Below, in pieces: positions 13,994-31,348 of a stretch of DNA of 64,000 bases (position 1 is its first letter; the number at the start of each line of letters is the position of its first letter). The position numbers and the translations under genes were made by a program. The stretch is from positions 6,503 to 70,502 of the IMG/VR virus record IMGVR_UViG_3300006217_000016; one strand, given 5' to 3'. This DNA is from a virus (lineage: Duplodnaviria; Heunggongvirae; Uroviricota; Caudoviricetes). The notes below the pieces were generated by a model. It ran no database searches and was not told where the DNA came from. It saw only the letters and a program-made list of their open reading frames with translations.

Positions 13994-14002
13994 ATTGTCA
14001 CC

Positions 14003-14170
14003 TCAATAGTGAATTTTCTGGACATAACCACACTTTTTGCAACGGTATATTTCTGTGTATCCAATAGGCATATCCTGTGGAGCCCACTCAGAATAGTTGG
14101 TTACTCTCGTGATATGTTCCCACTCATGTTTGCAAAACAGCGAGCGGATATAGTTGATAAGCCATCTCAT
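14003..14170 (-). CDS. Small zinc-ribbon-like protein (MRWLINYIRSLFCKHEW...CKKCGYVQKIHY)
   Basis: 55-aa ORF not in the track (under 60 aa). RBS GGAGGTG upstream. Fills the gap between the prs-like and membrane protein genes. Confidence 0.35.
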   Translation of the reverse strand: MRWLINYIRSLFCKHEWEHITRVTNYSEWAPQDMPIGYTEIYRCKKCGYVQKIHY

Positions 14171-14186
14171 CGCGCACCTCCTATGA

Positions 14187-14987: not shown

Positions 14988-14990
14988 GTC

Positions 14991-15539
14991 TTACTCCTCC
15001 CAGTTCTCAATGTTGATTTGACACATCTTCATGGCCTTGAGGGCATTTTCGTGGCTCTCTGGTGTCACGCCAGCGCAGCAAGCGGCATCCACCGTAATTT
15101 TGACTTCCGGCAAAAACGCTTTAAGCAGCAGCGCGTTGGAAATGACACAGATATCGGTGCAGAGGCCGACCAGGACAATCTCGTCAATATGGCTCGACAC
15201 GCTGTTTTTAATGCGCAGGTACTCGCCAAGTTCAATAGAGCCAAACGTTTTCTTTCTGAAAGTAGAAGTCCACTCCTCCTTGTCTACGATTGCATTGAAA
15301 AGCACATCAGGGGCGCACCAGCCCTCGGTCTTATCAATGCAGTGCTCAACGGGGAGCATCTTCCCTTCCTGCGTCTCCAGATAGTCCTTATCGTGGGTAT
15401 CAAAGGTTGCAAGGATCTCGCCGTCAAACTCTTCGGCTTTCGCAACAACCTTCGGCAGAATCGCCTGCGCCTCTTTGGTGCCAAGAGACCCATCAATGAA
15501 ATCGTTTTGCATATCAACAATGACCAATACCTTACTCAT
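14991..15539 (-). CDS. pncA: Nicotinamidase/isochorismatase-family hydrolase (PncA-like)
   Basis: VLVIVDMQNDF and GLCTDICV motifs. Start at the internal ATG with AGGAGG upstream. Confidence 0.7.
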   Translation of the reverse strand: MSKVLVIVDMQNDFIDGSLGTKEAQAILPKVVAKAEEFDGEILATFDTHDKDYLETQEGKMLPVEHCIDKTEGWCAPDVLFNAIVDKEEWTSTFRKKTFGSIELGEYLRIKNSVSSHIDEIVLVGLCTDICVISNALLLKAFLPEVKITVDAACCAGVTPESHENALKAMKMCQINIENWEE

Positions 15540-15549
15540 ATGTACCTCC

Positions 15550-16068
15550 TTAGTTCCCCTTGTAGTAAAATTCGTGCCGGTAATCGACATGGAAATTTTC
15601 CACGCGATCATCGTCAATTTCATCACTTGTTGTTAAAACAACGCTTTTATCGGAGAATAAATAACGGAGCAGCCGCCCGCTGCTCCGAAGTATTCCGTCC
15701 ACGAACCTCAGATGATCGTCCTCACCAGCATGATCGACAAAAGCATTAACGCAATAAACGCCGCTTCCATATCTGTGATAGGTGGCCTTTTCAAACTCAC
15801 ATTGAACACCAACTTTCATCAGTTCTTCCATAATCCATGTCTTTGCGTTCTCTGCCTTTTTCATTTCATAAAGCGACAGGATACTGGAGTATAAATACGC
15901 AGCCTTATCCTCGACTGACCGCAGTTCAGCAGGCTCTCGGCCAAAATCGTCACATCGAAAATACACCTTTTCTGGATATTCTAGTTCAGCCTTCCTGTCC
16001 GTCACAATACAAATACAGTGGGTGCTGCTGGAATTGGTCTCAAACACCGAATTTCGTACTTGCCGCAT
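15550..16068 (-). CDS. Protein with N-terminal MRQVR-VFETNSSSTHC motif (paralog B)
   Basis: Start at the internal ATG, preceded by AAGGAGA. Shares its N-terminal 20 aa with 10720..11016. Confidence 0.55.
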   Translation of the reverse strand: MRQVRNSVFETNSSSTHCICIVTDRKAELEYPEKVYFRCDDFGREPAELRSVEDKAAYLYSSILSLYEMKKAENAKTWIMEELMKVGVQCEFEKATYHRYGSGVYCVNAFVDHAGEDDHLRFVDGILRSSGRLLRYLFSDKSVVLTTSDEIDDDRVENFHVDYRHEFYYKGN

Positions 16069-16515: not shown

Positions 16516-17130
16516 TTACTCCTGGAACCTGTAGTCAACTCTCTCCCAGTTCCCAGGTCTTAGATATGTGATATAGATTTTGTCAAACGCCCAAGAACCG
16601 ACATCTCCCATGCCAGCCTCTCCGCGATAATCTCCGCCTCCCATGCCATTCCCGATGCAAGTGAGAAGCGGAAGCGGGTTGATACACCACACGCCAGACA
16701 TCCCGTATCTGTCGCGGACGGAGTTCCGCCTTATGTATTCCTCTATGTCGATGTAGCACTTTTTCGTTGCATTCACCAGATAGCACCCGGCGCTGTCGAG
16801 ATCGAGCTTATATTGTGGCGTTTCCGGTGAGATATCCTGAACGCTTCTGTATTCACCCCACACGCCGTTATACTTTTCAAGGAAGGCTTCAACACTTGTG
16901 ATATATCCATCACCAAAGTTGCATCCATCCTCCACTGCATCGGTGGCATAGTCTCCCATCCATGCGATACGGGCCGGTCTGTCCTCGATTTCATGCAGCA
17001 CCGCGTTAACAAAGTTATTGCCGATCCATGAGTGCTCCATCAGCTTGAGCCCATTGTCAAATGCGTGAGAATACGCAGACCGTTCCTCTCCGTCTTCAAA
17101 AATCATCAGCGGTCTATAATACTGTCCCAT
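16516..17130 (-). CDS. Hypothetical protein
   Basis: 204 aa. ATGA overlap with the upstream gene. Confidence 0.5.
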   Translation of the reverse strand: MGQYYRPLMIFEDGEERSAYSHAFDNGLKLMEHSWIGNNFVNAVLHEIEDRPARIAWMGDYATDAVEDGCNFGDGYITSVEAFLEKYNGVWGEYRSVQDISPETPQYKLDLDSAGCYLVNATKKCYIDIEEYIRRNSVRDRYGMSGVWCINPLPLLTCIGNGMGGGDYRGEAGMGDVGSWAFDKIYITYLRPGNWERVDYRFQE

Positions 17131-17570
17131 CAGCTCGCCCTCCCAAGCACAGCTATAAAGCTGTCCGTTTCAATATCCTCCTCGATGTCAGCAGGCGCAA
17201 ACCAGTCGTCGGCATCTTCATCGGTGTCTTCTTCAATATCGTCTTCGACATTTTCTTCTTCTTCATCCCACGCTTCGTTTTCGTCCATATGCCGGAGGAC
17301 TTCGTTCTTGTAGTCGTCAAATGAATAATCTGCGTCCTCATATCCGCCATATCCATCCTCGCGGTAGTAATCGCAACGAGTCGGAATGTTCGCCAGAAGG
17401 CCACGGATTTCTTCCCAGTCACGCATATTGCCGATTGTTTCCAGCAGGATTTCATTGAGGTATTCTGCATCATAAACATCGTTGCAGAGATCATCAATTC
17501 CCTCATCAACACAGAAACTGATTAGGTCGCCGAATGAGTTTACACCTTCGATAAATTCCTGACGTGTCAT
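17130..17570 (-). CDS. Acidic small protein P1 of the C-terminal-tail family (ends DSFIAVLGRAS)
   Basis: 146 aa. RBS AAAGGGG upstream. Lies immediately downstream of the tRNA cluster. Confidence 0.5.
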   Translation of the reverse strand: MTRQEFIEGVNSFGDLISFCVDEGIDDLCNDVYDAEYLNEILLETIGNMRDWEEIRGLLANIPTRCDYYREDGYGGYEDADYSFDDYKNEVLRHMDENEAWDEEEENVEDDIEEDTDEDADDWFAPADIEEDIETDSFIAVLGRAS

Positions 17571-17594
17571 GAAGAAGACCCCTTTCTGTTGAAT

Positions 17595-17669
17595 TGGTGA
17601 CCCGGACGGGAGTCGAACCCGCGTTACCAGAGTGAAGGTCTGGTGTCTTAACCGCTTGACTACCGGGCC
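17595..17669 (-). tRNA. tRNA, probably Glu (UUC) with an unusual C33
   Basis: Clean cloverleaf. Acceptor GGCCCGG/CCGGGTC, T-loop TTCGACT, CCA encoded. Anticodon loop CCUUCAC. Confidence 0.6.
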
Positions 17670-17672
17670 GTA

Positions 17673-17748
17673 TGGTCTGAGTGGGGAGGATCGAACTCCC
17701 GGCCTCGTGATCCCAAATCACGCGCTCTGCCAACTGAGCTACACCCAG
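17673..17748 (-). tRNA. tRNA-Pro (UGG)
   Basis: Acceptor CTGGGTG/CACTCAG with C1-G72. D-arm GCTCAGTTGGCAGAGC. Anticodon loop TTTGGGA. CCA encoded. Confidence 0.75.
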
Positions 17749-17851
17749 ATATTGTGCGGGCGGGGATTTTCACCCCGCATAGGTAAGATTATGTACCTGC
17801 TACCGAGCTTGTCGCCCATCGGCTACTTCACCGAACCCAAACAGGAGGACA

Positions 17852-17930
17852 ACGATGGACTCGAACCATTGTCTTACCCTACCTCTCGTTATAGCGTCTA
17901 CCTATTCCGCCACCGCACATTTTGTATTGT
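17852..17930 (-). tRNA. Degenerate tRNA-like remnant (T-loop GGTTCGAGTCC; no consistent acceptor or anticodon arm)
   Basis: T-arm-like sequence found, but hand-folding failed. Adjacent GCGGGG-ATTTTCA-CCCCGC hairpin at 17764-17782. Confidence 0.2.
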
Positions 17931-18039
17931 GTAGCTCTAAAAACAGGACTCCCGCAGGCGAGCGTCCCTGTAAACCTGCTACACTCGGTTTTGAGCGTGC
18001 CCATCCCGCAGGGCGGCGGGGTGCTCCGTGTACTTTGGA

Positions 18040-18074
18040 GCAAAGAAAAAGATCGTGCCGAGAACTACGGCACG
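18040..18074 (-). terminator. Rho-independent terminator just 3' of tRNA-Gly
   Basis: Hairpin CGTGCCG-AGAACTA-CGGCACG followed by a U-run on the minus strand. Confidence 0.55.
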
Positions 18075-18075
18075 C

Positions 18076-18151
18076 TGGAGTGAGAGACGGGACTTGAACC
18101 CGCAGCTTCCGACTTGGAAGGACGGCACTCTGCCAGTTGAGTTACTCCCAC
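18076..18151 (-). tRNA. tRNA-Gly (UCC)
   Basis: Acceptor GTGGGAG/CTCTCAC. D-stem ACTC/GAGT. Anticodon loop CTTCCAA. T-arm GCGGGTTCAAGTCCCGT. CCA encoded. Confidence 0.75.
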
Positions 18152-18154
18152 AGA

Positions 18155-18573
18155 TGGTGGAGCCGGCGGGAATCGAACCCGCGTCCGAAATTCCTACATG
18201 AGCAAGACCTTTTTACGCAATAGGTTTCCTTTTAGGTGGATGCCTTATGGCGGGGCACCAAGATGGAATCCAAATCTACCCCAGGGCGTACCAGTTAAGT
18301 ACACCTCCACCACCTTGTCTTTTTGAACAGATTACAAGGAAAACTGTTTTTCTGGCGTATCCTCGACCGCAGGTACTTACCCAGCCAGAGGTGTACCGTT
18401 TTGGAATCCTGCCGACAGTTAAGCGGCGACCCTCTCTGCCATGAAGGCGGCGAAAGCGGGATGGATCATAACAACACTCATATCATTGTCATTTCATTTT
18501 TTGTTTAGCCTTAAGGCGGTCTCTACCTGCGAATCTTACTCTCTCAGAACCCCGTCGAAACCTTTACGGCCCC
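18155..18573 (-). ncRNA. ssrA: tmRNA (SsrA), about 419 nt
   Basis: 5' end GGGGCCGUAAAGGUUUCGACGGGG and 3' end AUGUAGGAAUUUCGGACGCGGGUUCGAUUCCCGCCGGCUCCACCA are near-identical to bacterial tmRNA termini. An internal frame ends ...AFAAFMAERVAA-UAA (stop near 18419-18421), consistent with a degradation tag. Confidence 0.8.
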
Positions 18574-18603
18574 GTAAAAGAGGCCCGGCGTATAGCCGGG
18601 CCG
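18574..18603 (-). terminator. Hairpin GGCCCGGC-GTATA-GCCGGGCC plus U-run immediately 5' of tmRNA (terminator-like or processing element)
   Basis: Perfect 8-bp stem followed by UCUUUU on the minus strand. Confidence 0.4.
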
Positions 18604-18677
18604 TTCCCCACATTGTTATAGACCGCATGGGTGCGCTGTCTTATTAAATACCATGTTTGCACGTTCCCCTTTCGGGG

Positions 18678-18753
18678 TGGAGCTGGTAACAGGAGTCGAA
18701 CCCGCGACACTCGGAGTACAAAACCGATGCTCTACCAACTGAGCTATACCAGC
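18678..18753 (-). tRNA. tRNA-Thr (UGU)
   Basis: Acceptor GCTGGTA/TACCAGC. D-arm GCTCAGTTGGTAGAGC. Anticodon loop TTTGTAC. CCA encoded. Confidence 0.75.
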
Positions 18754-18756
18754 AAA

Positions 18757-18832
18757 TGGAGCTGATGCACGGACTCGAACCGCGAACCTAAGCTTTACGA
18801 AAGCCTCGCTCTGCCATTAGAGCTACATCAGC
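18757..18832 (-). tRNA. tRNA-Thr (CGU)
   Basis: Acceptor GCTGATG/CATCAGC. Anticodon loop TTCGTAA. T-loop TTCGAGT. CCA encoded. Confidence 0.7.
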
Positions 18833-18836
18833 ATGT

Positions 18837-18911
18837 TGGCTGGGGTGACTGGATTCGAACCAGCGAATGAGGGAGTCAAAGTCCCTTGCCTTGCCGCTTG
18901 GCGACACCCCA
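18837..18911 (-). tRNA. tRNA-Gln (UUG)
   Basis: U1-A72 acceptor (TGGGGTG/CACCCCA). Anticodon loop CTTTGAC. T-loop TTCGAAT. CCA encoded. Confidence 0.7.
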
Positions 18912-18946
18912 ATATTGGGAGCGGTCGAATTGACCGCTCCGTAGGA

Positions 18947-19621
18947 CTATACAAGCATTACCTTATTGTATAAGGCAATGAATTGATCATTCATAATTTT
19001 GTCGATATGGTAGTGTCCAAAATACCAACGTTTGAACTGAAGGTCAACCATAATACGCTCCAGATAGCTTACGAGCGGATCATTTTCATACCAATCTGCA
19101 ATCATGGTCTGAATGCTTCTTGGCGCACAGTGCGTTAACACATAATCAACAGACCATCCGTTGTTATCAAGCGCGTTGATCCCCCGTTCCATCTCTTCCA
19201 TAGATGGCATTTCGTCTTTCCACCAAGAAATATGTTCTGTACGATATTCTTTGTCATGAGATCTTGCACCGCCCATCACAAAGAACCTTTGCCCGTCGAT
19301 GGTCAGAACTTGTCCTCTCTCCAGATGGTAAATATTTGGCGCTATTTCTCGGACTTTACCACCGAACTTATCTTGAAGCGAAAATTTGCGGAGGATATCA
19401 AAATTCTCATGGTTCCCATCGATCCAGAGCGTGGTGAAGTTTTTACCCGCGAGCCATTTTTTCCACCATATCTCTCGTGTAGAACCGTCCCATATGAGCC
19501 CAAAATCCCCACAGACAATTAAATAATCCTTCTTAGTGAGCGATTTTTGCATCGGGAAGTTCTTGACAGACAACTTTTTTATGTCAATGTCCGCATGAGT
19601 ATCCCCTGTCACATAGATCAT
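18947..19621 (-). CDS. Calcineurin-like metallophosphoesterase
   Basis: Motifs VTGDTHAD, VCGDFG, GNHENF. Confidence 0.7.
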   Translation of the reverse strand: MIYVTGDTHADIDIKKLSVKNFPMQKSLTKKDYLIVCGDFGLIWDGSTREIWWKKWLAGKNFTTLWIDGNHENFDILRKFSLQDKFGGKVREIAPNIYHLERGQVLTIDGQRFFVMGGARSHDKEYRTEHISWWKDEMPSMEEMERGINALDNNGWSVDYVLTHCAPRSIQTMIADWYENDPLVSYLERIMVDLQFKRWYFGHYHIDKIMNDQFIALYNKVMLV

Positions 19622-19899
19622 TTTGAACCTCCAAGCATACGCATAAAGCTGTCTTCCTCAATGTCGATGGTTCCTTCTGGTTCATACAGCCTGATCTCAT
19701 TGCGTCCAACATACCATCCAAGTCCATGCTTGCAAGTATGTCCGCAGTCGTGTCCTCTTTGGATGGGCTTACCCCAATTAACACCAATATTATCTGATAC
19801 CCTGCATACTGTGCCAAGGTCGCCTATCTTGATATCAGGATTGCCGTCTGGATGATTACGAATAGCTTCGACACAATCTCCTACTTGAAATTCCATCAC
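19618..19899 (-). CDS. Small protein P2 of the C-terminal-tail family (GHDCxxxC...GWYV core; ends EEDSFMRMLGGSK)
   Basis: Paralogous to P3. Preceded on the sense strand by G8-TGA-CAAAGCGTG. Confidence 0.5.
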   Translation of the reverse strand: MMEFQVGDCVEAIRNHPDGNPDIKIGDLGTVCRVSDNIGVNWGKPIQRGHDCGHTCKHGLGWYVGRNEIRLYEPEGTIDIEEDSFMRMLGGSK

Positions 19900-20191
19900 G
19901 CTTTGTCACCCCCCCCGCACGGAGAGCGACACCAAGGAAGGAGTTCTCGTCGATATCTTCAACATCATCTTCGTACGGCCTGATATATCTCGTATGGACA
20001 TACCACCCGTGGCCGTACTCACAATTTCCGGAGCAATCATGTCCTTCACCTAATTCATTATCCCAATCGACACCAACATGATCTCCGTCAATATCGCACA
20101 CCGTTCCAGTATCGCCAACCATGATATAGTCACTCTCATCTGGGTTGTTGACGATAGCTTCTACTCGATCTCCAATTTGATACCTTGCCAT
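19856..20191 (-). CDS. Small protein P3 (paralog of P2). As sequenced, reads through a G8 tract into P2. A 7-G tract would end it at ...LRAGG-stop.
   Basis: Start placed at MARYQIGDRVEAIV (RBS AAAGGGTGG), homologous to the P2 N-terminus. An alternative upstream ATG at 20269 has no SD. Confidence 0.45.
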   Translation of the reverse strand: MARYQIGDRVEAIVNNPDESDYIMVGDTGTVCDIDGDHVGVDWDNELGEGHDCSGNCEYGHGWYVHTRYIRPYEDDVEDIDENSFLGVALRAGGVTKRDGISSRRLCRSYS

Positions 20192-20644
20192 GGATACCAC
20201 CCTTTCGTGAAAGTCTGGCGCAATACTTAAAACCTGTGTTTTATCCCATACATAATAGCCATACTGCATGGGATGGCAAAAGGACGCTGAACTCGGGATT
20301 TTCCACTACCTCTTATTTCAAATAAATACTCGGATCAGCGTCCTAAAGTCCTTGAAATACGCACTTTGTTGTTTGTGATCTGCATTATATCTCGGCAGGC
20401 TACGAGGAGGGCTCCCTGCATCCGGATACAGCTCCCGGTTACTGCTGTCATCTGGTTTGGAATGATGTCGTGTGTCTGTGGGTTCCTGACATCGGGTGCC
20501 GAACTCCTTGAGTCTCAGTGTGTTGGCGGGTTTGGTGACCTTTGTCCTGATGGCCCCTGTGCGGGTCGGCGCCTGAGCAGGTGGTCGTCGGCTGCCGCGG
20601 GATCTCTGATCGCACGCACTGCGGCCGCCAAGCCGTCATCCTCC

Positions 20645-20681
20645 ACCCAACCATTCGTTACTCTGATTTACAATACAGAGT
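20645..20681. repeat. Conserved hairpin repeat, copy B, with upstream block CCACCCAACCATTCGTT
   Basis: ACTCTG-ATTTACAATA-CAGAGT, about 40 nt after the stop at 20720. Confidence 0.65.
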
Positions 20682-20719
20682 TTAAGTCTTTCGACTTAAA
20701 ATACATCGCAACAACAAAG

Positions 20720-21271
20720 TTATTTTATATGCACAATATATCGCCCGCCGGTCGGCGGCTCTTGCTCAACGACCCGAAAACCAACAGAAGAATACTGATC
20801 CCAAACCTGTCCCCAGTTGATATAGTCGGTCAGCACGTCTTTACTGAGGGTGTCAAGCATCTCGTCTGTAACACCGTGGTCAAACGGCACTTTGAGTTCA
20901 GTCGCCAGATAACAAGCTGCGGTCTCCTTTGCGTTCATCGCCCAATGAAGATCAGATATGTCCTCGAACATAAAATCGTTTTCTTTCAGCTTACGCACAA
21001 ATTCCGGATCGAACAGGTCACCAGAAGACGAAGCTTCCATCAGAACCTTCAAATAATCTTCCGTCATCCCAGGATTTTCGCTGTTGATATCATCCAGTAT
21101 ATCGTTCAATCCACTGATATCGTCGTTTCGGCTGATTGGAATGTTGGGCGTGGTGGACAGAATAATGTAATCATAATGATTCTCTAATTCTGCCCGCAGA
21201 TTACATGGCAGTACAATGACTTTGGATTCGCCGCAATCCAAATCACTGACTTCGACTGCCAGTTGAATCAT
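20720..21271 (-). CDS. Hypothetical protein downstream of the RT
   Basis: Start at MIQLAVEV with RBS GAGGTGG. The ORF extends upstream to 21298. Confidence 0.5.
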   Translation of the reverse strand: MIQLAVEVSDLDCGESKVIVLPCNLRAELENHYDYIILSTTPNIPISRNDDISGLNDILDDINSENPGMTEDYLKVLMEASSSGDLFDPEFVRKLKENDFMFEDISDLHWAMNAKETAACYLATELKVPFDHGVTDEMLDTLSKDVLTDYINWGQVWDQYSSVGFRVVEQEPPTGGRYIVHIK

Positions 21272-21555
21272 ATCAACCACCTCTTTCATGCTTTGCATAA
21301 ACTTTGTAATCTACCATAAGGGATAGGAAGCTGGCCATGGTTTCCTCCAGAGAGGTGAGTCTGGGAATGTCATCTCGTGTGTTCCCGGCTGTCCGAACTG
21401 GTGTCAGGTTTCAGGAATTTTTGTGACGGAGTTCCTGCTGATTTCCTGGCGAAATGTGCAGTTCGGTAATAGTTCCGTTCTTCGTGATGTTGGTAAGGGT
21501 GTTTAGCATCTCCTGCTGCCGTCGCGGCCGGCAGCACTGCGCAGCCTGGCAGGCT

Positions 21556-21598
21556 CCCTTCTCCCAGCCATTCGTTACTCTGATTTACAATACAGAGT
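21556..21598. repeat. Conserved hairpin repeat, copy C, with upstream block CCCTTCTCCCAGCCATTCGTT
   Basis: ACTCTG-ATTTACAATA-CAGAGT, about 45 nt after the RT stop. Confidence 0.65.
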
Positions 21599-21643
21599 GC
21601 CTTTTGAGGAACAAAAGGCTATACATTACAAAATTTTGCTTAT

Positions 21644-22783
21644 TTATGCGGCCAAATCCTCATGGATGGTACGCATTACGTCCGTTTGATATTTTTCGTT
21701 GTTGTACTTGATGACCTCGTCAACATACTTTTCTTCAACCATCCGGTAGTAGTTGATAAGGCCGCGCAAAACCTGAACATCGTGCAGTTCCCAGACAATT
21801 CCGTTCTTACGGTCGAGGATGTAGTTGCTGATCATTGCACGAAAACGCTGCTTGTTCTTGTGACCGATGGTGATCTCATTGTCCTTATTGAGCATGAGCC
21901 CGAGGTTCCAATTACTGCCGGCTCTGGAACCATACCTCGTCTTCTCATCCTTGATCTTGAACGGCGCATGGAAATCATCCAGCGTCTGATTGATGAAGTC
22001 GATGACCTTATTGTAGTCAAACTCTCTCCGGCTTGAAATTAGAGAGTCGTCTGCGTATCTGGTGTAAACGAACGACTGCCCGTTAAAATCACGCAGGGTA
22101 TTGTATACCTTGTGATCAAGGGGGATCATCATCAGATTTGTGAGCATCGGAGAAATCGGCGTGCCCTGCGGCAATCCGCCATGAAGAAAACAGAGGTTGA
22201 GTGCCTTGTCCAGTGCTGCTCTGCCCCGTTCTGACTTGACAATCTCGCTGAACGGGAAAATCAAAGAGAGCGAATACCGAAGGAATACCAGCGTTGTGTC
22301 CCCAAAAAAGTTCGAGAAATCCGTCTTTAAGAACCAATGACTGTCATTCCTCTGGTGACGTTTGATGGCGTCAATGGTGGAACGATTCTTAACATAGGCA
22401 AAGGCGGAGGTGTGGTACAGCGCAAACATCTTGGTCTCAAACAAAGTCTTCAGATTCCGAAGCGCCGTCATCAGTTCTGGCACAGGGGCATTGATCTCAC
22501 GCAGGCCGCCGGACTTCTTCGGAATATGGAATGTGGTATAGAGGGCTTCTCTCGGAACGGCATACAGCTCGGCATTTTGTTCGCAAAAACTCTCCAGAGC
22601 GGAGACCATACCGGCGAAATCGAACCGATCCAGAAACTGTGGCTTGAGTCGCTGTGCGAAATGCGTTCTGGTATTGGTGCTGTTTGAAGTTATCATAGAC
22701 TGCATGTTGACCTCACCAGATATGATTTCCTCAAATGATATCTGATGGTATGCAGGCGATTGCATGACGGTTATGTATGGCAT
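21644..22783 (-). CDS. Reverse transcriptase, retron/group-II-like (QGxxxSP and YADD motifs), 379 aa
   Basis: Motifs IPKKSGGLREINAP (RT1), FLKTDFSNFF (RT3), LPQGTPISP (RT4), YTRYADD (RT5). RBS AGGAGG upstream. Confidence 0.85.
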   Translation of the reverse strand: MPYITVMQSPAYHQISFEEIISGEVNMQSMITSNSTNTRTHFAQRLKPQFLDRFDFAGMVSALESFCEQNAELYAVPREALYTTFHIPKKSGGLREINAPVPELMTALRNLKTLFETKMFALYHTSAFAYVKNRSTIDAIKRHQRNDSHWFLKTDFSNFFGDTTLVFLRYSLSLIFPFSEIVKSERGRAALDKALNLCFLHGGLPQGTPISPMLTNLMMIPLDHKVYNTLRDFNGQSFVYTRYADDSLISSRREFDYNKVIDFINQTLDDFHAPFKIKDEKTRYGSRAGSNWNLGLMLNKDNEITIGHKNKQRFRAMISNYILDRKNGIVWELHDVQVLRGLINYYRMVEEKYVDEVIKYNNEKYQTDVMRTIHEDLAA

Positions 22784-23079
22784 ATTTTTAATACCTCCTG
22801 ATGTCTGTATTCTGGTATACAGTAGGTTGAGGAATTCAGGATGCGATGGGTACTTGAGAGCTGGGACTGAGTGCGGGCTCGGTGGGTAATCTGGTGAGTG
22901 ATTTGCGGCGGTCCGATGGTTCTTGGGGTCGCCATCTGTCTTCCTGTTTGCTGTCCGTCACCTTTCTGGTCGAGATGTCAAGAGTTCTTTGCGTATTTGG
23001 AGCAGTAGAAAACAGTTTATTTATTACCTCTTGACCTCGGTGGCGGGCAGGCGCCTTCAGATTCCGCCTCCGGGCGGGG

Positions 23080-23124
23080 TGTCCCTTCTCCCAGCCATGC
23101 GCAACTCTGATTTACAATACAGAG
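23080..23124. repeat. Conserved hairpin repeat, copy D, with upstream block CCCTTCTCCCAGCCATGCGCA
   Basis: CTCTG-ATTTACAATA-CAGAG in the RT upstream spacer. Confidence 0.65.
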
Positions 23125-23227
23125 CACCCTCAGAATAACTCTGAAAGTAATGCAATACAGACTATATGGAAGGGGCAGCGGCAACCAAAGCCACTGCCCC
23201 TATAGAACTATCGTAAAACGTGATGCC

Positions 23228-23899
23228 TTACACGGCGATCACGTCGAATTCAAAAGCATCCACAAGAATCATCTTGCGGAGTTTCTCGCCCTTCACGAAG
23301 TTGATGAAGTTGGCTACGCCGTAGGCAACGATCGTTCGCACCGTCGGAACAACCGACAGTGTGATATTGCAGGCAGAAACGGGCGTCGCCTCTTTTGCCT
23401 CATCATGAGAGAACGCCATGCTGTCGATAAAGTTCTCCACCATCTTCTTGTCGCTCCAGTCAGCGGCATAGTGCTGGGCGTCCGTCAGCCGCATCCGGAA
23501 GTCGAACATCCCCTTGACGAACGTGTTCTCCTTACAGGAGGTGGCGATCTCCCGGCGGAGGTCAATGTTGTCCACCGCCAGGAACACATAACCGGAGAGA
23601 CGCTGGCCTGTCCAGCCCTCTTTGACCAGCTTCAGATCGGGGGCGCAGTCCGGATTGATCTCGGTGAGATACTCAGCCAAAGCATCAACCTTGGCCTTGC
23701 CGATATCCGTATTCCGGAACATCTGGTTGGCAATGTTGTGGGCTTCTACGGTATCGAAGTCATACAGCGTGATTTTCGTAATGCCGAACCGCACCAGATT
23801 CTCAGCGACCGTGGAACCAATCGCTCCACAGCCGATGATATGAATCCGCGATTCGAGCATATCCGGCTTGAAGAATTCGTAGGACTTCGCCAAATCCAT
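23228..23899 (-). CDS. E1-like ThiF/MoeB-family protein
   Basis: Rossmann motif IHIIGCGAIGSTVAENL followed by YDFDTVEAHNIANQ. RBS AAAGGAGAG. Confidence 0.65.
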   Translation of the reverse strand: MDLAKSYEFFKPDMLESRIHIIGCGAIGSTVAENLVRFGITKITLYDFDTVEAHNIANQMFRNTDIGKAKVDALAEYLTEINPDCAPDLKLVKEGWTGQRLSGYVFLAVDNIDLRREIATSCKENTFVKGMFDFRMRLTDAQHYAADWSDKKMVENFIDSMAFSHDEAKEATPVSACNITLSVVPTVRTIVAYGVANFINFVKGEKLRKMILVDAFEFDVIAV

Positions 23900-23916
23900 T
23901 GTTTGTCTCTCCTTTC

Positions 23917-24789
23917 TTACTGTCCGAGGTATAGGCGGTCATAGGGATCGTCTTCGTCGAATTGGTAGTCGGAAAAGGACCGGCCAATGCCGGTATCACC
24001 TCCGTTTACCTTCGGTTTTGTTTTGACTCCGACGACGCTCGCACCGGCCGTCGCCGCCGGCGTTGTTGTCTGACTGATGGGTGTGACGACCCGCGTCTGC
24101 GTCTGCTGATAGGTTCCCTGAAAACCGGTGACAGGCTTATAGGTTCTGTTGGTGACGATCTCCTTGGCGCTGCTGATGAAAGCCTGAAGATCCACGCCGA
24201 CATCTCCAATATACACATCAACATCTGCCGTGTCGTACAGGGTGTTGTTCTTCAGATCGAAGATGCGGACAAAGTGCTCGTACCGCTTGTTCCAGATCAT
24301 GAAGATGTAGTAGTCGTCATCGGAGATTTGCTCCAGAATCTTCTCCTGGTGAGTTGTGTCCACACCAGAGGGAGACACGCCCATATTGACGTGGCTGTGT
24401 CCTTGCATCCGGATGTTATTGAACACATCATCATCAAAGGAGTAAAGCCACGTCTGGTACGCCTCTTGATCGGTGTTGACCGTTGCGCCGGTAACAACCT
24501 GCGGGTATACCAAAATGTCGGTGATGTGGAAGATGGACGGATCCTGCTCATCACGGTGAACCACGCCGTGCCACGCGACCTCGTCGTTGAACTGCTGAAT
24601 GAGCGAGTTCATCTTGGCGAAGGCAATCGAGGACAGGTAGACAGTTGCCCGGTCGTCATCGCCCTCCCACTTGAACGTCCGGCTGTATTCCAGCTTTCCG
24701 TCAAACATCTTGGTGGACTTCACCTTTGCGATGAACTCCTCCTGAATTTTTTGCAGCAGCTCGTCCGTGAGCTTAATGGGCTTACTCAT
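23917..24789 (-). CDS. JAB/MPN (JAMM) metallopeptidase-domain protein
   Basis: JAMM motif HSHVNMGVSPSGVD (HxHx7Sx2D) with upstream acidic residues. Start at MSKP with AGGAGGAGAG upstream. The longer ORF begins with a K/R-rich stretch. Confidence 0.65.
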   Translation of the reverse strand: MSKPIKLTDELLQKIQEEFIAKVKSTKMFDGKLEYSRTFKWEGDDDRATVYLSSIAFAKMNSLIQQFNDEVAWHGVVHRDEQDPSIFHITDILVYPQVVTGATVNTDQEAYQTWLYSFDDDVFNNIRMQGHSHVNMGVSPSGVDTTHQEKILEQISDDDYYIFMIWNKRYEHFVRIFDLKNNTLYDTADVDVYIGDVGVDLQAFISSAKEIVTNRTYKPVTGFQGTYQQTQTRVVTPISQTTTPAATAGASVVGVKTKPKVNGGDTGIGRSFSDYQFDEDDPYDRLYLGQ

Positions 24790-26275
24790 GGCTCTCCTCC
24801 TGTTCTTTTTCTTTCTTCGCCTTGACATCTTGTTCCTCCAACCACAATACGGCCTCAAACGGCGTCTTGGTCGTACCGTCGGGCATTTCGATTACCTTAC
24901 CGATCCTGTTCGAGAACAGCAACTGCGTCATCTTGCCGGTTGTTGCGCTCTCCTGAACATTGACGCTCTTTGCCGACTGAACACAAGCAGCTACCGCGCC
25001 GACATAATCCCGGTTACGCATAGATTGGCGAATTGTCGCCTCATTTCCACCAAGGCAGTGAAACGCCTGGATGTGCTGGTTCGGCGTGTGATCCATGATG
25101 ATATCCGACGGGAAATCGTATCCGCTAATCCCGGCGTACCTGCCGTTATCGAAGTTCAGCGAATATGCGGCGCAAATGCGAATCTTCATCGTCTCTTTGA
25201 CGAAAATCTCCGTCATCAGACGCTTAATGCGCTCTACCGTCATATTTTCGTTGTCACGATATTCATAGATGTAGCTACGGTTATTCTGAATGACGGACTC
25301 CGCTGCGTCAGGATCGAAGTTTGCAACCGTGGTGGTTACAATGAACTTGATTTCGCCATTGTATACGCTGACCAGATGCAGCGAATTGTTGCATAGGAAG
25401 TAGTCCAAAAGCTCGCTGCTCTCCGCGCCGCCTCCGTGTGTGATTTTATCGACCAGACCGCACTCCTGCGTTCTCAGGTCGTCCATCTGCTGGTAGTAAT
25501 TGGAGAAAGTGCTCTCCAAATCACGCATCCTGCGATCCATATCGTTGATCTGGCTGCGGACGGACTCCAGCTTCCGGCGGTCAAAGTGTGTTTCAAAGCC
25601 GGTCAACTGATTGCGGATAACCTGTGACCGGAAGTCAAACCGCTTGGCGAACTCCTGAATCTTCGTTTCATAGCTGGGGGCGTAACGCTTTGTGAGCGTC
25701 TTGACGATCTCAATCTCCTCGTCAGTCATCGGATTGGACTCGAAGTACCACGGGAAGTAGCGGGAAATCAGAGACTCCAGCATGTGCCACCGCTTCATGT
25801 TCATCTTTTCCGTGAAGATGATGGTGTTGCGGTACTCCTCGTTCACATAGACCTTGGCGCGGAACTTTGCGTCGCTCTCAATCCATGCGGACAGATCCGC
25901 CAGGAGCTTGTATCCAGAGACTGTCTTTGGAACACCTTCAACGAGTTTCTCGAAGCAGGTTGTGTTGCTCTCGTCGCTCCCCTCAAATGAATGGATGAGC
26001 AAAATGCCGGTTGAACCATCCATAATCGGAGTTCGGTTAAAGAAAGCCCTGACGCAGTCTCTCGGAGACGAGCCAGATAACTGCCCGGAACTGTAGTCTG
26101 TGCTTTTATATCGCAGTGTGATTGACTCCTCTTTCGGAACCCTGCTATACAGCAAAGCTCTCAAGGTCGCAACGAACGACTCGTCATTGCGGAACTTATC
26201 TCCGCCGATATTCGGGAATACGGTCGATGCGATCTCATTGGTGAGAGTCAGACCAGTGATTTCTTTTGAGAACAT
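24782..26275 (-). CDS. Large protein with a C-terminal UBC/E2-like signature
   Basis: C-terminal stretch YDFPSDIIMDHTPNQHIQAFHCLGG resembles the UBC HPN...Cys active-site region. RBS AAAAGGAG. Overlaps the JAB start by 8 nt. Confidence 0.45.
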   Translation of the reverse strand: MFSKEITGLTLTNEIASTVFPNIGGDKFRNDESFVATLRALLYSRVPKEESITLRYKSTDYSSGQLSGSSPRDCVRAFFNRTPIMDGSTGILLIHSFEGSDESNTTCFEKLVEGVPKTVSGYKLLADLSAWIESDAKFRAKVYVNEEYRNTIIFTEKMNMKRWHMLESLISRYFPWYFESNPMTDEEIEIVKTLTKRYAPSYETKIQEFAKRFDFRSQVIRNQLTGFETHFDRRKLESVRSQINDMDRRMRDLESTFSNYYQQMDDLRTQECGLVDKITHGGGAESSELLDYFLCNNSLHLVSVYNGEIKFIVTTTVANFDPDAAESVIQNNRSYIYEYRDNENMTVERIKRLMTEIFVKETMKIRICAAYSLNFDNGRYAGISGYDFPSDIIMDHTPNQHIQAFHCLGGNEATIRQSMRNRDYVGAVAACVQSAKSVNVQESATTGKMTQLLFSNRIGKVIEMPDGTTKTPFEAVLWLEEQDVKAKKEKEQEESHE

Positions 26276-26364
26276 AGCCTGCTCCTTTTCTGAAAGATTT
26301 AAGGGCTCCCACCGCTCAGATGGGAGCCCTCGGCCCTATGTATAGGGGACTGCGGTGGGTCTGA

Positions 26365-26619
26365 TCAGGCGTTGTCAGCCTTGACGACGGAGATCAGGAA
26401 GCACTTGTCGTGGCCGGGCTCGCCGGTGTAGCCCATCTCGGCGAAGGTCTGATCCAGCTTGGCACCGGTGACGGTCTCGCCGTCCAGGGACAGCATACCC
26501 ACGGAGTAGTCGATGCCGGTCTCGCCCTGGGTGCTCTCCAGAGCCTGGCGGATGGTGGTGTTGGGGTTCAGGTTGAAACGGGCGCGCTTCAGGTTGTTAC
26601 CGATAGTGACGTTAATCAT
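26365..26619 (-). CDS. Small beta-grasp-like (ThiS/MoaD/Ubl-like) candidate, 84 aa, no terminal GG
   Basis: Length and hydrophobic pattern resemble a beta-grasp fold. Ends KADNA. RBS AAGGAGAA. Confidence 0.35.
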   Translation of the reverse strand: MINVTIGNNLKRARFNLNPNTTIRQALESTQGETGIDYSVGMLSLDGETVTGAKLDQTFAEMGYTGEPGHDKCFLISVVKADNA

Positions 26620-26706
26620 GATTCATTCTCCTTCTTATTCAAAAAATTTTGGGTTGACAGGTTTGTGTTGCCGGGCGGGGATTTCCCCGCCCGGACTTAG
26701 CCATCC

Positions 26707-27108
26707 TTAGATGACGGTGATGTTAGCCATGACCTCGGCGTTCTCAGCCTCGACCTCGGCCAGGGCATCGTCGATGCCGGCCTCCACCTTGTTCAGGCGA
26801 ACCACGGCCTTGCCGACCAGCTTGGCAGCATAGTCGATCACGTTCTCAGTCCCAGCGGGGACGGGAATCGTGATGGTGGCCAGCTTCGCCTCGTCGTGGG
26901 TCTCGGAGGCGAAAGTCGCGCCGTTCTGGTTGATGCTGCCGGCAGCAGCGGCGGTCTCCACGCGGAAGATTTCCTCCTTCTTACCGTTCTCATCGGTCTC
27001 GATGAGACGAAGAGCCTTCGGGCGGTACTCCTCCAGCGTCTTCAGAGCCTTGAGGCTCTTGCCGCTGGTGACGATGATCGCGTCACCAGCAATGGTGATC
27101 TTTGCCAT
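26707..27108 (-). CDS. Hypothetical protein (start at MAKITIAGD)
   Basis: The upstream extension of the ORF would translate the poly-G tract and terminator. RBS AAAGGATG. Confidence 0.45.
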   Translation of the reverse strand: MAKITIAGDAIIVTSGKSLKALKTLEEYRPKALRLIETDENGKKEEIFRVETAAAAGSINQNGATFASETHDEAKLATITIPVPAGTENVIDYAAKLVGKAVVRLNKVEAGIDDALAEVEAENAEVMANITVI

Positions 27109-27221
27109 ACTGATACATCCTTTCTGTTCGGGCTTTGCCCTTAATATGTACCCCGTTTGCTCACCCCCCCCCATCGGGGGCTCCCCAGCCTGAACCACGA
27201 GGAGGTGGGGCCGATCAGGCC

Positions 27222-27254
27222 GCAAAGAACCCCGTAACTTTTCAGCTACGGGGC
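27222..27254 (-). terminator. Rho-independent terminator after P4
   Basis: CCCCGUA-GCUGAAAAGU-UACGGGG hairpin followed by UUCUUU on the minus strand. Confidence 0.6.
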
Positions 27255-27259
27255 TCTTG

Positions 27260-27703
27260 TCAACTTCTGATGATTCGATTGAATGCGTCTTCTGATATTT
27301 CCGGGTTATTGCAGGCCATCCCCTCTGGATGGTATTCAAAGTGGCAGTATGGATACCAGTCGTTATAGTCTCCGGTTCCAACCTCCAAAATGATCTCGTC
27401 AGTTACCTCGTCTTGCATCACCAGGATGTCATTATCGTATCCGCCATCTTCTTCGTTCTTCATGTAACATTTCATGGCCTGCGGCGGAAACGAATATCTC
27501 GGCGGATCATCGGACACAACAAGCTCCCTGCATCTGCTTCTATATCCATCTTCCGGGTCTTCGACAGCCATGTAGTGAACACCGTCAAGCGTAAACTTTA
27601 CGAAGTTGCAATCCTGTGATTCACCCCAACTATCATCCACACATATACGTCCGGTTTCGACACCTGACAGTTTGTGTGTTCCTACCAAATCGGAAAGTTC
27701 CAC
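27260..27703 (-). CDS. Small protein P4 of the C-terminal-tail family (ends ISEDAFNRIIRS)
   Basis: GTG start 7 nt after GGGAGGTGA, which also encodes the IGR-stop of P5. Confidence 0.5.
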   Translation of the reverse strand: MELSDLVGTHKLSGVETGRICVDDSWGESQDCNFVKFTLDGVHYMAVEDPEDGYRSRCRELVVSDDPPRYSFPPQAMKCYMKNEEDGGYDNDILVMQDEVTDEIILEVGTGDYNDWYPYCHFEYHPEGMACNNPEISEDAFNRIIRS

Positions 27704-27707
27704 TTAA

Positions 27708-28022
27708 TCACCTCCCGATGATAGCCGCAAAACTTTCGTCGGAGATGTCCTCTTGCTCTTCCCCATAGAAAGTGCATTTCATGTAGTCGTCCGCATCGTT
27801 CTTTGACCCATATCTCACAGTATCGCCTCTGATATAGTAGCAGAAATTACCACGGTGTTTCTCCCAGTAATTTTTCTTCAGAGGACTCTCGCCGGTCGGG
27901 TATTTGATGCCAAACGCGACTAATATTGCGGCAAATTCACGCTCCAAATCTGCTTCTGGGCAATTTACAGCAACATAGCTGTTTTCTCCCAGCATTGATG
28001 TATCAAATGGCCTGTCCCACAT
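27708..28022 (-). CDS. Small protein P5 (ends ISDESFAAIIGR)
   Basis: RBS GGGAGGT upstream. Paralogous core (KCTFYG) with P6. Confidence 0.5.
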   Translation of the reverse strand: MWDRPFDTSMLGENSYVAVNCPEADLEREFAAILVAFGIKYPTGESPLKKNYWEKHRGNFCYYIRGDTVRYGSKNDADDYMKCTFYGEEQEDISDESFAAIIGR

Positions 28023-28027
28023 TTGTC

Positions 28028-28384
28028 TTACCTCCCTTGATTACCCCCCCCCGCAGAGATAATTGCTTCAAATCCGGCATCGGAGATTTCAAAGTCGGGC
28101 TCCACGCCGTAAAATGTGCATTTGATATAATTTCTGTATGCGCTGTCTGAGTAACATGTTCTGCTCCCATATTTCATTGTTCCTCGCGGTTCAATGCGAT
28201 AACAGGTTTCTTCTCTGTTCTCATGCCAATGAGTTTCTCCAACTGGCTCATCACCATACCATTTTATATCGTTTTCTTCTAAAAACGAAAACAGTTCATC
28301 TACCAAGTCTTTGTCAGGACAATGGATGATGACACCGTTGAATAGCATTGAAATCTCAAGCGGAGTGTCTGGCCAATCTACCAT
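28028..28384 (-). CDS. Small protein P6 (ends ISDAGFEAIISAGGGNQGR; G9 tract in the C-terminal codons)
   Basis: Paralog of P5. Start is 6 nt after G8-TGA of P7. Confidence 0.5.
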   Translation of the reverse strand: MVDWPDTPLEISMLFNGVIIHCPDKDLVDELFSFLEENDIKWYGDEPVGETHWHENREETCYRIEPRGTMKYGSRTCYSDSAYRNYIKCTFYGVEPDFEISDAGFEAIISAGGGNQGR

Positions 28385-28390
28385 TGAGAC

Positions 28391-28636
28391 TCACCCCCCC
28401 CGAGTTAGAATATTGAGCAGAGACTCGAAGTCGGTGTAATCGTAAGGATTGATGGGATGACCATTATACATAGCAAAGAGCACTTTTGCATCGTTGGCTG
28501 GAACAAAATTGCATTCACCATTCCAATCGTCAACGACGCCCTGAAGGTACTTAGCCTGAATCAAGTACGGATCGCCATCTGCGTTTTCAGTGACGACAAC
28601 CGTATCGCTACCAAGCATAACAGTTTTCAGATCCAC
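28391..28636 (-). CDS. Small protein P7 (ends DFESLLNILTRGG-stop; RGG encoded by CGG GGG GGG TGA)
   Basis: GTG start with GGAGGTGA 6 nt upstream. Confidence 0.5.
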   Translation of the reverse strand: MDLKTVMLGSDTVVVTENADGDPYLIQAKYLQGVVDDWNGECNFVPANDAKVLFAMYNGHPINPYDYTDFESLLNILTRGG

Positions 28637-28836: not shown

Positions 28837-28922
28837 TGGTGTCGATGATGGGATTTGAACCCATACGGCGTTAGAGCCAACAGGGTTTGAGCCTGTCATG
28901 TCTACTATTCCATCACATCGAC
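28837..28922 (-). tRNA. tRNA-Leu (CAA)
   Basis: Acceptor GTCGATG/CATCGAC. Anticodon loop CTCAAAC. Long variable arm. T-arm ATGGGTTCAAATCCCAT. CCA encoded. Confidence 0.7.
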
Positions 28923-28925
28923 ATA

Positions 28926-29012
28926 TGGTGTGGGCGGCGGGAATTGAACCCGCACATCGAACCCGATATAGAGGCTTAAACTCCATGTGTCTTCCAATTC
29001 CACCACGCCCAC
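28926..29012 (-). tRNA. tRNA-Leu (UAA)
   Basis: Acceptor GTGGGCG/CGCCCAC. Anticodon loop TTTAAGC. Long variable arm. T-arm GCGGGTTCAATTCCCGC. CCA encoded. Confidence 0.7.
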
Positions 29013-31267: not shown

Positions 31268-31343
31268 TGGTGGAGATAGTCGGGATCGAACCGGCGACCT
31301 CCTGCTTGCAAGGCAGGCGCTCTCCCATCTGAGCTATATCCCC
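31268..31343 (-). tRNA. tRNA-Ala (UGC)
   Basis: Acceptor GGGGATA/TATCTCC with G3-U70. Anticodon loop CTTGCAA. CCA encoded. Confidence 0.8.
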
Positions 31344-31348
31344 ATATT

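Follow-up and report, generated by a model that had tools for sequence, protein, structure and literature searches.

The 64,000-nucleotide window analysed here (positions 6,503 to 70,502 of IMG/VR record IMGVR_UViG_3300006217_000016) comes from an uncultured tailed phage. Seven small genes on its minus strand, P1 to P7, encode proteins that share a C-terminal module, comprised of an acidic linker and then the core [DE]-I-[SDE]-[DE]-x-[SAG]-F-x-x-[IVM]-[IL]. The recurrence of this tail is real and exceeds what chance would give. We think it on balance probable that the tail is a shared docking or targeting peptide, overlaid at its very end by a layer derived from Shine-Dalgarno (SD) sequences. 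The seven open reading frames (ORFs) and their C-terminal sequences had been listed in a preliminary description of this DNA, and all were recovered on the minus strand (aa, amino acids; residues after the core are given up to the stop codon):

17130-17570, minus strand: P1, 146 aa, net charge -41; core DIETDSFIAVL at 17145-17177, followed by GRAS
19618-19899, minus strand: P2, 93 aa, CAP-Gly-like/SH3-like barrel; core DIEEDSFMRML at 19633-19665, followed by GGSK
19856-20191, minus strand: P3, paralogue of P2; core DIDENSFLGVA at 19925-19957, followed by LRAGG and a frame-dependent extension
27260-27703, minus strand: P4, 147 aa, all-beta domain; core EISEDAFNRII at 27269-27301, followed by RS
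27708-28022, minus strand: P5, 104 aa; core DISDESFAAII at 27717-27749, followed by GR, encoded by GGGAGGTGA, the SD of P4
28028-28384, minus strand: P6, 118 aa, paralogue of P5; core EISDAGFEAII at 28058-28090, followed by SAGGGNQGR
28391-28636, minus strand: P7, 81 aa; tail YDYTDFESLLNIL at 28406-28444, followed by TRGG

The tail and its carriers

The preliminary description had taken P1 to P7 for seven paralogues. In an all-against-all BLASTP comparison only P2 and P3 (E 4e-27) and P5 and P6 (E 7e-19) proved to be paralogous pairs; the seven proteins belong to five unrelated families, and all other similarity among them is restricted to the last 11-18 residues. All are small and acidic, with net charges of -5 to -41. 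The peptide EEQEDISDESFAAIIGR is an example of the tail, and the core of P7 is looser (Y-D-Y-T-D-F-E-S-L-L). A shared tail had been rightly recognized, but its conserved part is longer and lies further upstream than had been proposed, and the terminal R/G-G-G stands outside the motif. Searches of the seven proteins against Pfam, PHROGs, NCBIfam and PADLOC returned only families of unknown function and weak SH3 matches. The literature was searched for a C-terminal motif common to phage accessory proteins, for phage clamp binders, and for a phage system of ubiquitin-like protein (Ubl), E1 and JAB, and nothing matching was found.

For comparison, loci of relatives were fetched and numbered L001 to L027; together with the window they amount to 438 kb. 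A regular expression for the extended motif, built from the same tails on which it was scored, matched 39 times in the six frames of this sequence. All 39 matches lay 2-28 residues ahead of a stop codon in the gene's own frame, and none was internal.

The core is retained as the proteins diverge. Homologues of P6 whose body identity falls from 100% to about 46% (to about 46-62%) keep PDFEISDAGFEAIIS almost unchanged, while the residues after the core vary (AGG, AWGG, AAGN, AGGGNQGR and AGGVIKGGKTNVGQAI). All 20 of the 20 P2/P3 homologues (36-51% identity) finish in [IV]-D-[DE]-x-x-[FLM]-x-x-[ILF]-[ILF], after which come 0-8 residues that are not conserved. In the P1 family, a conserved domain of about 100 residues is followed by an acidic linker variable in length and sequence and then by a near-invariant end, EEDIETxSFMAVLGRAS; judged from these sequences, its layout is that of a tethered linear motif. 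The P4 family is large, with 1042 cluster representatives at an E-value of 0.001 or better. Most of the best 150 matches stop 0-10 residues past ...PENMxCN without a tail, and only about 8-10 of these 150 carry one (for example ITDEEFERLLFS, NTDDVMQLLM, VSEEELLSLLS and EFDESKFNNLI). Since most of the best 150 matches are tail-less, the P4 tail does not belong to the fold and was added in certain phage lineages. The tailed proteins thus present what characterizes a tethered short linear motif, namely a conserved terminal motif on unrelated domains, a variable linker, and presence in only part of a family.

Further carriers were found in the relatives. Runs of 7-10 consecutive small ORFs end in ...IDSLFQEVV, ...AMNALFREVV, ...VEDLFGG, ...IESLFEAR or ...SIDDLF, and the tail is also found on a DUF6273 protein (...EFESNFALLLSL) and a DUF551 protein (...FEMFEAIFE). 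At lower stringency, two more window genes are possibly tailed, at 7522-8160 (minus strand, ending ...EYSVNDSFEDIVAQFIEAAHPAE) and 2538-3080 (minus strand, ending ...SDEISVIDGLVEFCNGMEETK).

In AlphaFold2 (AF2) models of P2 and P4 the tail is a short helix that stands apart from the folded domain. In P2, a small barrel (predicted local distance difference test, pLDDT, above 90) is followed by a linker (about 60) and the helix EDSFMRML, residues 82-89 (about 57). In P4, an all-beta domain of 133 residues is followed by a helix at residues 138-146 (pLDDT about 93). In these two models P4 had no beta-grasp match and P2 was an SH3-like or CAP-Gly-like barrel; a Foldseek search with the P4 model against PDB and BFVD gave uncharacterized viral proteins only. 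The best structural match of P2/P3 was the dynactin CAP-Gly domain 2hl5_C (Foldseek E 6e-3, probability 1.0), and a P2/P3 profile searched against PDB also gave dynactin, at a marginal E of 0.04. P2/P3 and CAP-Gly share C-E-x-GHG-[IW]-[FY]-V...I..ED; the GKNDG peptide-binding motif of CAP-Gly is replaced in P2/P3 by a conserved G-H-D-C, and Pfam matched SH3_13/SH3_12 only. The barrel family has conserved His and Cys residues (GHDC...C...GHGW) and is encoded by tandem genes, in runs of 3-5, and in one case by a two-domain fusion, with loci in the window (19618-20191, minus strand) and in L009 (13498-14034), L024 (330-1212) and L025 (2-1353).

Terminal residues, Shine-Dalgarno sequences and G tracts

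We found a GG within the last six residues of 6 of the 87 window genes, and all six overlap a strong SD hexamer. Three of these six genes are tail-less (the genes at 1798-2541, 3077-3733 and 12246-13772; ends KKYGGK, KLGGET and LHGGEF). In the tailed genes, the G-rich motif 5-10 nt ahead of the next start codon encodes the terminal residues: GGGAGGG in P1, GGAGGT in P2, G8TGA in P3 and P7, GGGAGG in P6 and, as had been reported, GGGAGGTGA at the end of P5. Thus GRAS in P1 is encoded by the SD of the next gene, whose start overlaps the P1 stop (TGATG), the GG of P2 is the SD of the metallophosphatase gene at 18947-19621, and the final GR of P6 is the SD of P5. P4 has neither a terminal glycine nor an overlapping SD, and a terminator-like hairpin follows it at about 27226-27254. 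The imprint is therefore absent where there is no coupled downstream gene (P4, ending in RS), and present on unrelated genes without a tail.

The relatives use all three reading frames of GGAGGTG. One frame gives GG (...FGGV and ...GIGGG, from GGAGGGG or GGAGGTGGG), another gives a final GR, encoded by GGGAGGTGA, and the third gives EV (...QEVV, ...REVV and ...QEVIT, from (A/G)GGAGGTGG and GGAGGTGAT). The terminal GG, GR or EV is the SD of the next gene read in the frame of the upstream gene. The preliminary description had proposed an alignment of homologues to see whether the terminal GG is conserved, and it is not. The orthologous tails in L009 end in ...IILAGRGS, ...IIMPRS, ...IILPTKE, ...IIENAV and ...ILGVAV, and P2/P3 homologues in ...SHIAR, ...LQSAR, ...LKE, ...REVV and ...VVRK. 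Since no terminal GG is conserved, the feature that would resemble a Ubl precursor is absent.

Six runs of at least eight G were found in the window, all on the minus strand, and include the three that had been placed at gene ends:

19909-19916, minus strand: G8 tract, then TGA; SD-like, 6 nt before the GTG (9 nt before the ATG) of P2
28044-28052, minus strand: G9 tract in the last codons of P6
28394-28401, minus strand: G8 tract with an in-frame TGA after it; 6 nt before the ATG of P6, serving as its SD
27164-27172, minus strand: G9 tract away from gene ends
39771-39782, minus strand: G12 tract away from gene ends
40776-40783, minus strand: G8 tract away from gene ends

Five copies of the 9-mer GGGGGGTGA are present, each on the minus strand, where by our estimate about 0.5 would be expected by chance; G(n)T(G/A)A is all that the six tracts have in common. 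The tracts had been described as fused to the stop codon. This holds for P7 alone, with an in-frame CGGGGGGGGTGA; the TGA after the P3 tract and the TAA after the P6 tract are out of frame. P3 does read into P2, as had been noted. A fusion of P3 to P2 by slippage was rejected, the P2 frame having a TGA directly after the tract. The two non-coding tracts at 39771-39782 and 40776-40783 share G(n)TGACA(A)GC(C)GTGTGCATA. The former lies after a strong terminator hairpin and near a twister-P1 match, and the latter about 50 nt upstream of a TTGACA-17-TATATT promoter.

Tract length was compared between assemblies (Logan, ENA, JGI and NCBI records), counting contigs with otherwise identical proteins among the cluster members listed, which for P3 and P6 are part of the cluster. 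At the P3 site, 21 contigs had G7 (ending AGG), 53 had G8 (AGGVTKRDG..., as in the window), 94 had G9 (AGGGDKA), and two, two and three had G10, G11 and G12, respectively. At the P7 site the counts were 32 for G6, 10 for G7, 34 for G8 (RGG) and 14 for G9; at the P6 site they were 24 for G7, 18 for G8, 36 for G9 and seven for G10. The end of P5, encoded by GGGAGGTGA and free of a homopolymer, showed a single C-terminus in 232 contigs and serves as an internal control against general assembly noise. We provisionally read the tracts as truly hypermutable, at the level of assemblies. At the site of the P6 tract L009 has GGGGAGGGG, and the corresponding gene ends of L001 are of the GGAGG type; it therefore appears that the homopolymers arose from SD-type sequences by loss of the A.

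Every tract length retains the protein and its core. Only the residues after the GG change (0, 3-4 or 14-20 residues), and with them the position of the upstream stop. In one length class out of three this stop falls 17-60 nt past the downstream start codon, and in the others immediately ahead of that codon or on it (TGATG with G9 at P3/P2). Since the tracts are located after the conserved core, they cannot switch the tailed proteins on and off. The slipped-strand variation proposed in the preliminary description is accordingly borne out in tract length, which differs between otherwise identical sequences (G7-G12, G6-G9 and G7-G10 at the P3, P7 and P6 sites, respectively), but not as an on/off frameshift. 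A stochastic effect on the translational coupling of P2, P6 and P5 would be plausible. G8UGA may still pair with the anti-SD through G-U wobbles.

The retron-RT/ThiF-E1/JAB island and its surroundings

The tailed genes had been described as flanking an island with a retron-type reverse transcriptase (RT) and a putative Ubl, and this arrangement was confirmed, with seven tailed genes around a block of six:

21644-27102, minus strand: the island, a conserved six-gene block flanked by tailed genes
26707-27102, minus strand: 131-aa protein, first gene of the island
26365-26619, minus strand: putative Ubl, 84 aa, ending in a conserved ...VVKADNA and not in GG
24782-26275, minus strand: 497-aa protein with a PNxHIx5CLG motif, seen by eye in the alignment
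23917-24789, minus strand: JAB-like protein (PADLOC E 0.0045, weak), with HSHx7SxxD by eye
23228-23899, minus strand: ThiF-type E1 (PF00899, E 1.6e-26), matching Cap2-type profiles over the Rossmann part
21644-22783, minus strand: retron-type RT (NF038233, E 2e-51; PADLOC RT_II-A, E 6e-47)

A non-coding gap separates the E1 from the RT. The block is conserved down to 26-35% identity in at least 20 loci (recorded in L001, L002-L006, L009-L024, L026 and L027), and no library names the combination. No profile supports a Ubl or an E2 within it, and relaxed Pfam scans for Ubl, E2 and JAB gave nothing usable; the putative Ubl and the 497-aa protein, when searched against PDB sequences, had no matches. 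In several relatives a tRNA gene lies between the small putative Ubl gene and the gene of about 500 aa. The JAB-like proteins (23917-24789 and its orthologues) carry a different acidic-aromatic tail: ...DEDDPYDRLYLGQ, ...DDDDSVYTYGGYSDQYLGGE or ...DDDPYDYDDLYGLYMRS.

All seven tailed genes lie at most 6 kb from the island. In diverged islands, tailed genes are found inside it. Between JAB and E1 there are two ORFs in L022 (...VDEEMLMNCLLL and ...DSDVFFELFNAIG...) and a P1 homologue in L026 (...ELEFEQLISSAV), and between E1 and RT there is a tailed protein of 253-274 aa (...TDAELFELLGVAQP) in L010-L021, L019, L023 and L027. This neighbourhood is suggestive of a link between tail and island, and is confounded by shared ancestry.

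An RNA element lies between the P4 terminator and the first gene of the island:

27147-27223, minus strand: candidate self-cleaving ribozyme resembling that of hepatitis delta virus (HDV)

The Rfam HDV ribozyme model gave it 34.8 bits, where the gathering score is 50 (E 9e-4 for the local stretch), and no match at the gathering score was found in the relatives. In all lineages that were fetched, an HDV-like element precedes the 131-aa gene. Ten of its sequences, aligned by hand on their structure, display the nested ribozyme stems P1/P1.1/P2/P3/P4, with compensatory changes in stems P1 (GCCUGA/UCAGGC, GCCCAC/GUGGGC, GCUCAC/GUGAGC and GCCCAU/AUGGGU), P2 (CCCC/GGGG, UCCC/GGGA and CUCC/GGAG), P3 (ACC/GGU and GCC/GGC) and P4. 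Loop L3 is nearly invariant (UCC(U/C)CG(U/C)) and stem P4 is variable; in the window lineage this stem is CCCCC-GAU-GGGGG and contains the G9 tract at 27164-27172. A second ribozyme match, of twister type P1, was found at 39614-39683 (minus strand; 57.4 bits, gathering score 67.2, local E 9e-12), inside the listed ORF 39460-39771. Relatives carry RAGATH-4, RAGATH-16, RAGATH-36, drum and skipping-rope RNAs.

A near-identity search gave no near match to the window among deposited phages. Its relatives are in gut-type metagenomes and in metagenome-assembled genomes labelled Eubacteriales and Acutalibacteraceae, and a Firmicute host fits because the SDs are of a strong GGAGG type. Genes run on the minus strand from position 1 to about 41 kb, and a structural-looking arm follows on the plus strand from about 41 kb; divergent sigma-70-like promoters lie near 40.7-41.1 kb. 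The auxiliary and probable counter-defence genes of the minus-strand arm include those for a NAMPT/NAPRTase homologue, a PRPP-synthetase-like protein, an NAD synthase, an isochorismatase-family protein, a PTH2 peptidyl-tRNA hydrolase and two radical-SAM proteins. Four of these form an NAD-gene cluster at 11039-15626 (minus strand; NAD synthase 11039-11803, NAMPT/NAPRTase homologue 12246-13772, PRPP-synthetase-like 14187-14987, isochorismatase-family 14991-15626, possibly a nicotinamidase), which we take to resemble a phage counter-defence set that restores NAD+. The phage has 12 tRNA genes, one with an odd four-base anticodon call, and a transfer-messenger RNA (tmRNA; 96 bits); these and PTH2 lie at 18155-18573 (minus strand), 17595-18911, 28837-29012, 31268-31434 and 5007-5447. 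The tag that ARAGORN predicts for the tmRNA is AVEDTPEKQFSL, an atypical one. The region 199-4454 (minus strand) holds cargo unusual in a phage, namely OmpA-domain/NMT1-like and PspA/IM30-like proteins, an ABC-transporter ATPase and a permease component.

Readings of the tail and their meaning

In the account that we favour, two layers are superimposed at the ends of these genes. At the protein level, an acidic and probably flexible linker leads into an amphipathic helix of two turns, in which position 0 is F (or L/M), positions -4 to -2 are D/E, and positions -5, +3 and +4 are hydrophobic. It is a C-terminal short linear motif of a portable kind, which at least five unrelated families of small acidic accessory proteins have acquired in this phage, and more families in related phages. 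The motif would tether its carriers to one common putative receptor or route them to one common fate. Candidate receptors are, in order of preference, a component of the island, the CAP-Gly-like P2/P3 themselves, and a host hub or protease. At the mRNA level, the GG, GR, RGG or EVV after the helix is the SD of a translationally coupled downstream gene, and three such SD-like sites have in this lineage become slippage-prone G8-G9 homopolymers. Slippage alters only the few residues after the GG and the position of the upstream stop relative to the next start codon.

Several points weigh against this account. A relaxed form of the motif is enriched only about 2.5-fold at C-termini in the window (10 observed, 4 expected); the specificity therefore resides in the extended motif. 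Acidic residues ahead of an amphipathic helix make up a pattern of low complexity. The docking receptor is still putative, and the P4 tail helix, since its pLDDT is about 93, may be packed against the domain of P4 itself and not against a partner. Part of the tract-length variation seen between assemblies could be technical. Plain synteny in a single phage clade could account for the link to the island, and L025 has many tailed genes with no island within its 11 kb.

Known systems offer partial likenesses. The acidic tip of single-stranded-DNA-binding protein (SSB; DDDIPF or DDDLPF, and likewise the tails of T7 gp2.5 and gp4) has the same architecture of a folded domain, a variable disordered linker and an acidic-aromatic end that docks partners, and the P1 family has exactly this layout. 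In SSB, however, the tip of one protein recruits many partners, the aromatic residue is last and its carboxylate is read, whereas here one tip is found on many unrelated proteins and 6-13 residues follow the F, the motif continuing as a helix. The motif that binds the beta sliding clamp, QL[SD]LF, is likewise short, often C-terminal and present on many unrelated proteins that compete for one hub. The L024/L025 tails ...IDSLF..., ...VEDLFGG and ...SIDDLF match only its [SD]-L-F; by eye, the window tails lack the glutamine, and their F occupies the fourth position with an unconserved fifth (I, M, L, A, N or E). The tails do not match the Q-L-[SD]-L-F consensus and were not filed as clamp-binding motifs. 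Cargo peptides (encapsulin cargo-loading, microcompartment encapsulation and T4 capsid-targeting peptides) are portable terminal peptides that bring unrelated proteins, by way of a flexible linker, into one compartment, and those of microcompartments are short amphipathic helices, as is the tail. Their sequence patterns differ from it, the tailed genes lie in the non-structural arm, and no link to a shell, encapsulin or capsid was found. CAP-Gly domains, such as those of p150Glued, CLIP-170 and EB1, read acidic-aromatic EEY/F C-termini, and CLIP-170 combines its CAP-Gly domains with an acidic-aromatic tail of its own. In comparison, the dynactin matches of P2/P3 are marginal, GKNDG is replaced, and the tails do not end in an aromatic residue.

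Further classes were set aside by eye. Motifs of the LC3-interacting/Atg8-interacting (LIR/AIM) and SUMO-interacting (SIM) types were rejected on homologues with L or M at the aromatic position, and a ubiquitin-interacting motif (UIM) was also rejected. A MinD-type membrane helix does not agree with the acidity of the tails, nor Arbitrium or Phr-type signalling peptides with the absence of a signal peptide. A SecM-like arrest peptide was rejected on the distance from F to stop, which varies from 6 to 13 residues.

The preliminary description had likened the GG ends to Ubl precursors processed by JAB peptidases. Under that model the GG, with or without a short extension, would be trimmed by the JAB protein and then adenylated or conjugated by the ThiF-type E1, as with Cap2/Cap3 of the cyclic-oligonucleotide-based anti-phage signalling system (CBASS). 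Both enzyme genes are adjacent, tailed genes occur inside diverged islands, and nearly every tract length leaves a ...GG with a variable extension, as a precursor trimmed after GG would. In type II CBASS, moreover, Cap2 (E1-E2) and Cap3 (JAB) act on the C-terminus of the CD-NTase, a precedent for such enzymes working on a tail that is not a Ubl. The model nonetheless appears very unlikely to us. The SD overlap fully accounts for the GG, which is missing from most orthologous tails and likewise from P4, P5 and P1, and the G6 form of P7 has a single G. The conserved element is an internal helix, 2-13 residues from an extreme C-terminus that varies within and between families and with tract length, unlike that in CBASS. 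Neither P2 nor P4 is a beta-grasp protein, the small protein of the island itself has a conserved ...KADNA end, and no profile for a Ubl or an E2 was found in the island. The same description had offered a shared degron or targeting signal as its alternative. A shared targeting signal is indeed the best-supported class, but a degron as such, by which a host or phage protease or adaptor would clear the accessory proteins at a set time, and which would be a special case of a shared receptor, we regard as unlikely. All seven proteins are small, acidic and encoded in the non-structural arm, their tails resemble by eye the composition of ssrA-type tags (acidic residues or N, an aromatic residue and an aliphatic pair), and the phage has a tmRNA. 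On the other side, recognition of the ClpX type requires the terminal carboxylate in register, 0-17 variable residues follow the hydrophobic pair, and no protease gene was found in the scanned parts of the window. It is also rather improbable, slightly more so than a degron, that the tail is a structural element of its own protein, such as a capping or auto-inhibitory helix, and that the tails, having no partner in common, came to look alike by convergence or because a duplicated 3' cassette was inherited. The high pLDDT of the P4 helix would agree with this, as would GACAGCTTTAT...TGCTTGG, shared by the P1 and P2 tails at the DNA level. But most of the best 150 P4 matches fold without a tail, the model of the P2 tail, which lies behind a flexible linker, has low confidence, the length of the P1 linker is not constant, and one 11-residue pattern on five unrelated folds is hard to obtain from five packing solutions.

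Two readings concern the nucleic acid. One takes the tail for the protein shadow of an mRNA signal (GA-rich, U-rich, then SD) that would serve initiation at the next gene. Acidic codons are GA-rich, all hydrophobic codons have U at the second position, and most tailed genes are translationally coupled to the next. The same tail residues, however, are encoded by different codons in different families, and the core persists where no coupled gene follows, in P4 and its L009 orthologue, which are followed by a terminator hairpin and have no SD, and in the tailed proteins of 253-274 aa. Since the core is conserved and modular, differs in codons and is kept in P4 and L009 without a coupled gene, a purely RNA-level origin is ruled out, and we give the shadow model hardly any credence. 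The other reading, which would complement a docking peptide, takes the G tracts for contingency switches that reset upstream termination and SD length and so stochastically tune the translation of P2, P6 or P5. The tracts resemble known homopolymer contingency loci in having at least eight G and in differing in length between otherwise identical sequences; they differ from them in lying in last codons and the next SD, rather than in a 5' coding region or promoter, and in not switching their carrier off. The wide length polymorphism at three sites and its absence at the P5 end, the position of two tracts 6 nt upstream of the next start codon, and the one length class in three that overruns this start by 17-60 nt all favour such a role. 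Yet L001 and L009 manage without homopolymers (GGAGGGG and GGGGAGGGG, respectively), the G9 tract of P6 sits 20 nt upstream of the real SD of P5, and the polymorphism may be neutral or partly technical. We therefore treat the switch as a tentative possibility, with perhaps somewhat better prospects than a degron.

A bolder version of the docking peptide is speculative, and we would not expect it to hold. In this version the tail would serve as a viral address label, and its reader would be conjugation-like machinery of the phage itself, made up of the ThiF-E1, JAB, 497-aa and 131-aa proteins and coupled to the retron-type RT. The island would recognize the acidic-F-x-x-I-I helix and would thereby act on a changeable set of small counter-defence proteins by recruiting, modifying or releasing them, and hypermutable G-tract junctions would vary which of these are made. 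In a related version the CAP-Gly-like P2/P3 would be the readers of the tail, in parallel with eukaryotic CAP-Gly/EEY-F networks.

The terminal layer carries a caution, since a C-terminal GG, GR or EV in tightly packed operons of the Firmicute type can be merely the ribosome-binding site of the next gene. Homopolymer SDs at gene junctions are, in turn, a so far little-described place for hypermutable tracts. If the docking account is true, the motif would be a sequence handle for sets of functionally linked, unannotated and probably counter-defence phage proteins in gut metagenomes, and the tail itself would be a bait for their common receptor. In conclusion, the motif, its modular spread and the company it keeps make the tail a worthwhile and tractable target, and it may offer a way into the function of the conserved, phage-borne retron-RT/E1/JAB island.

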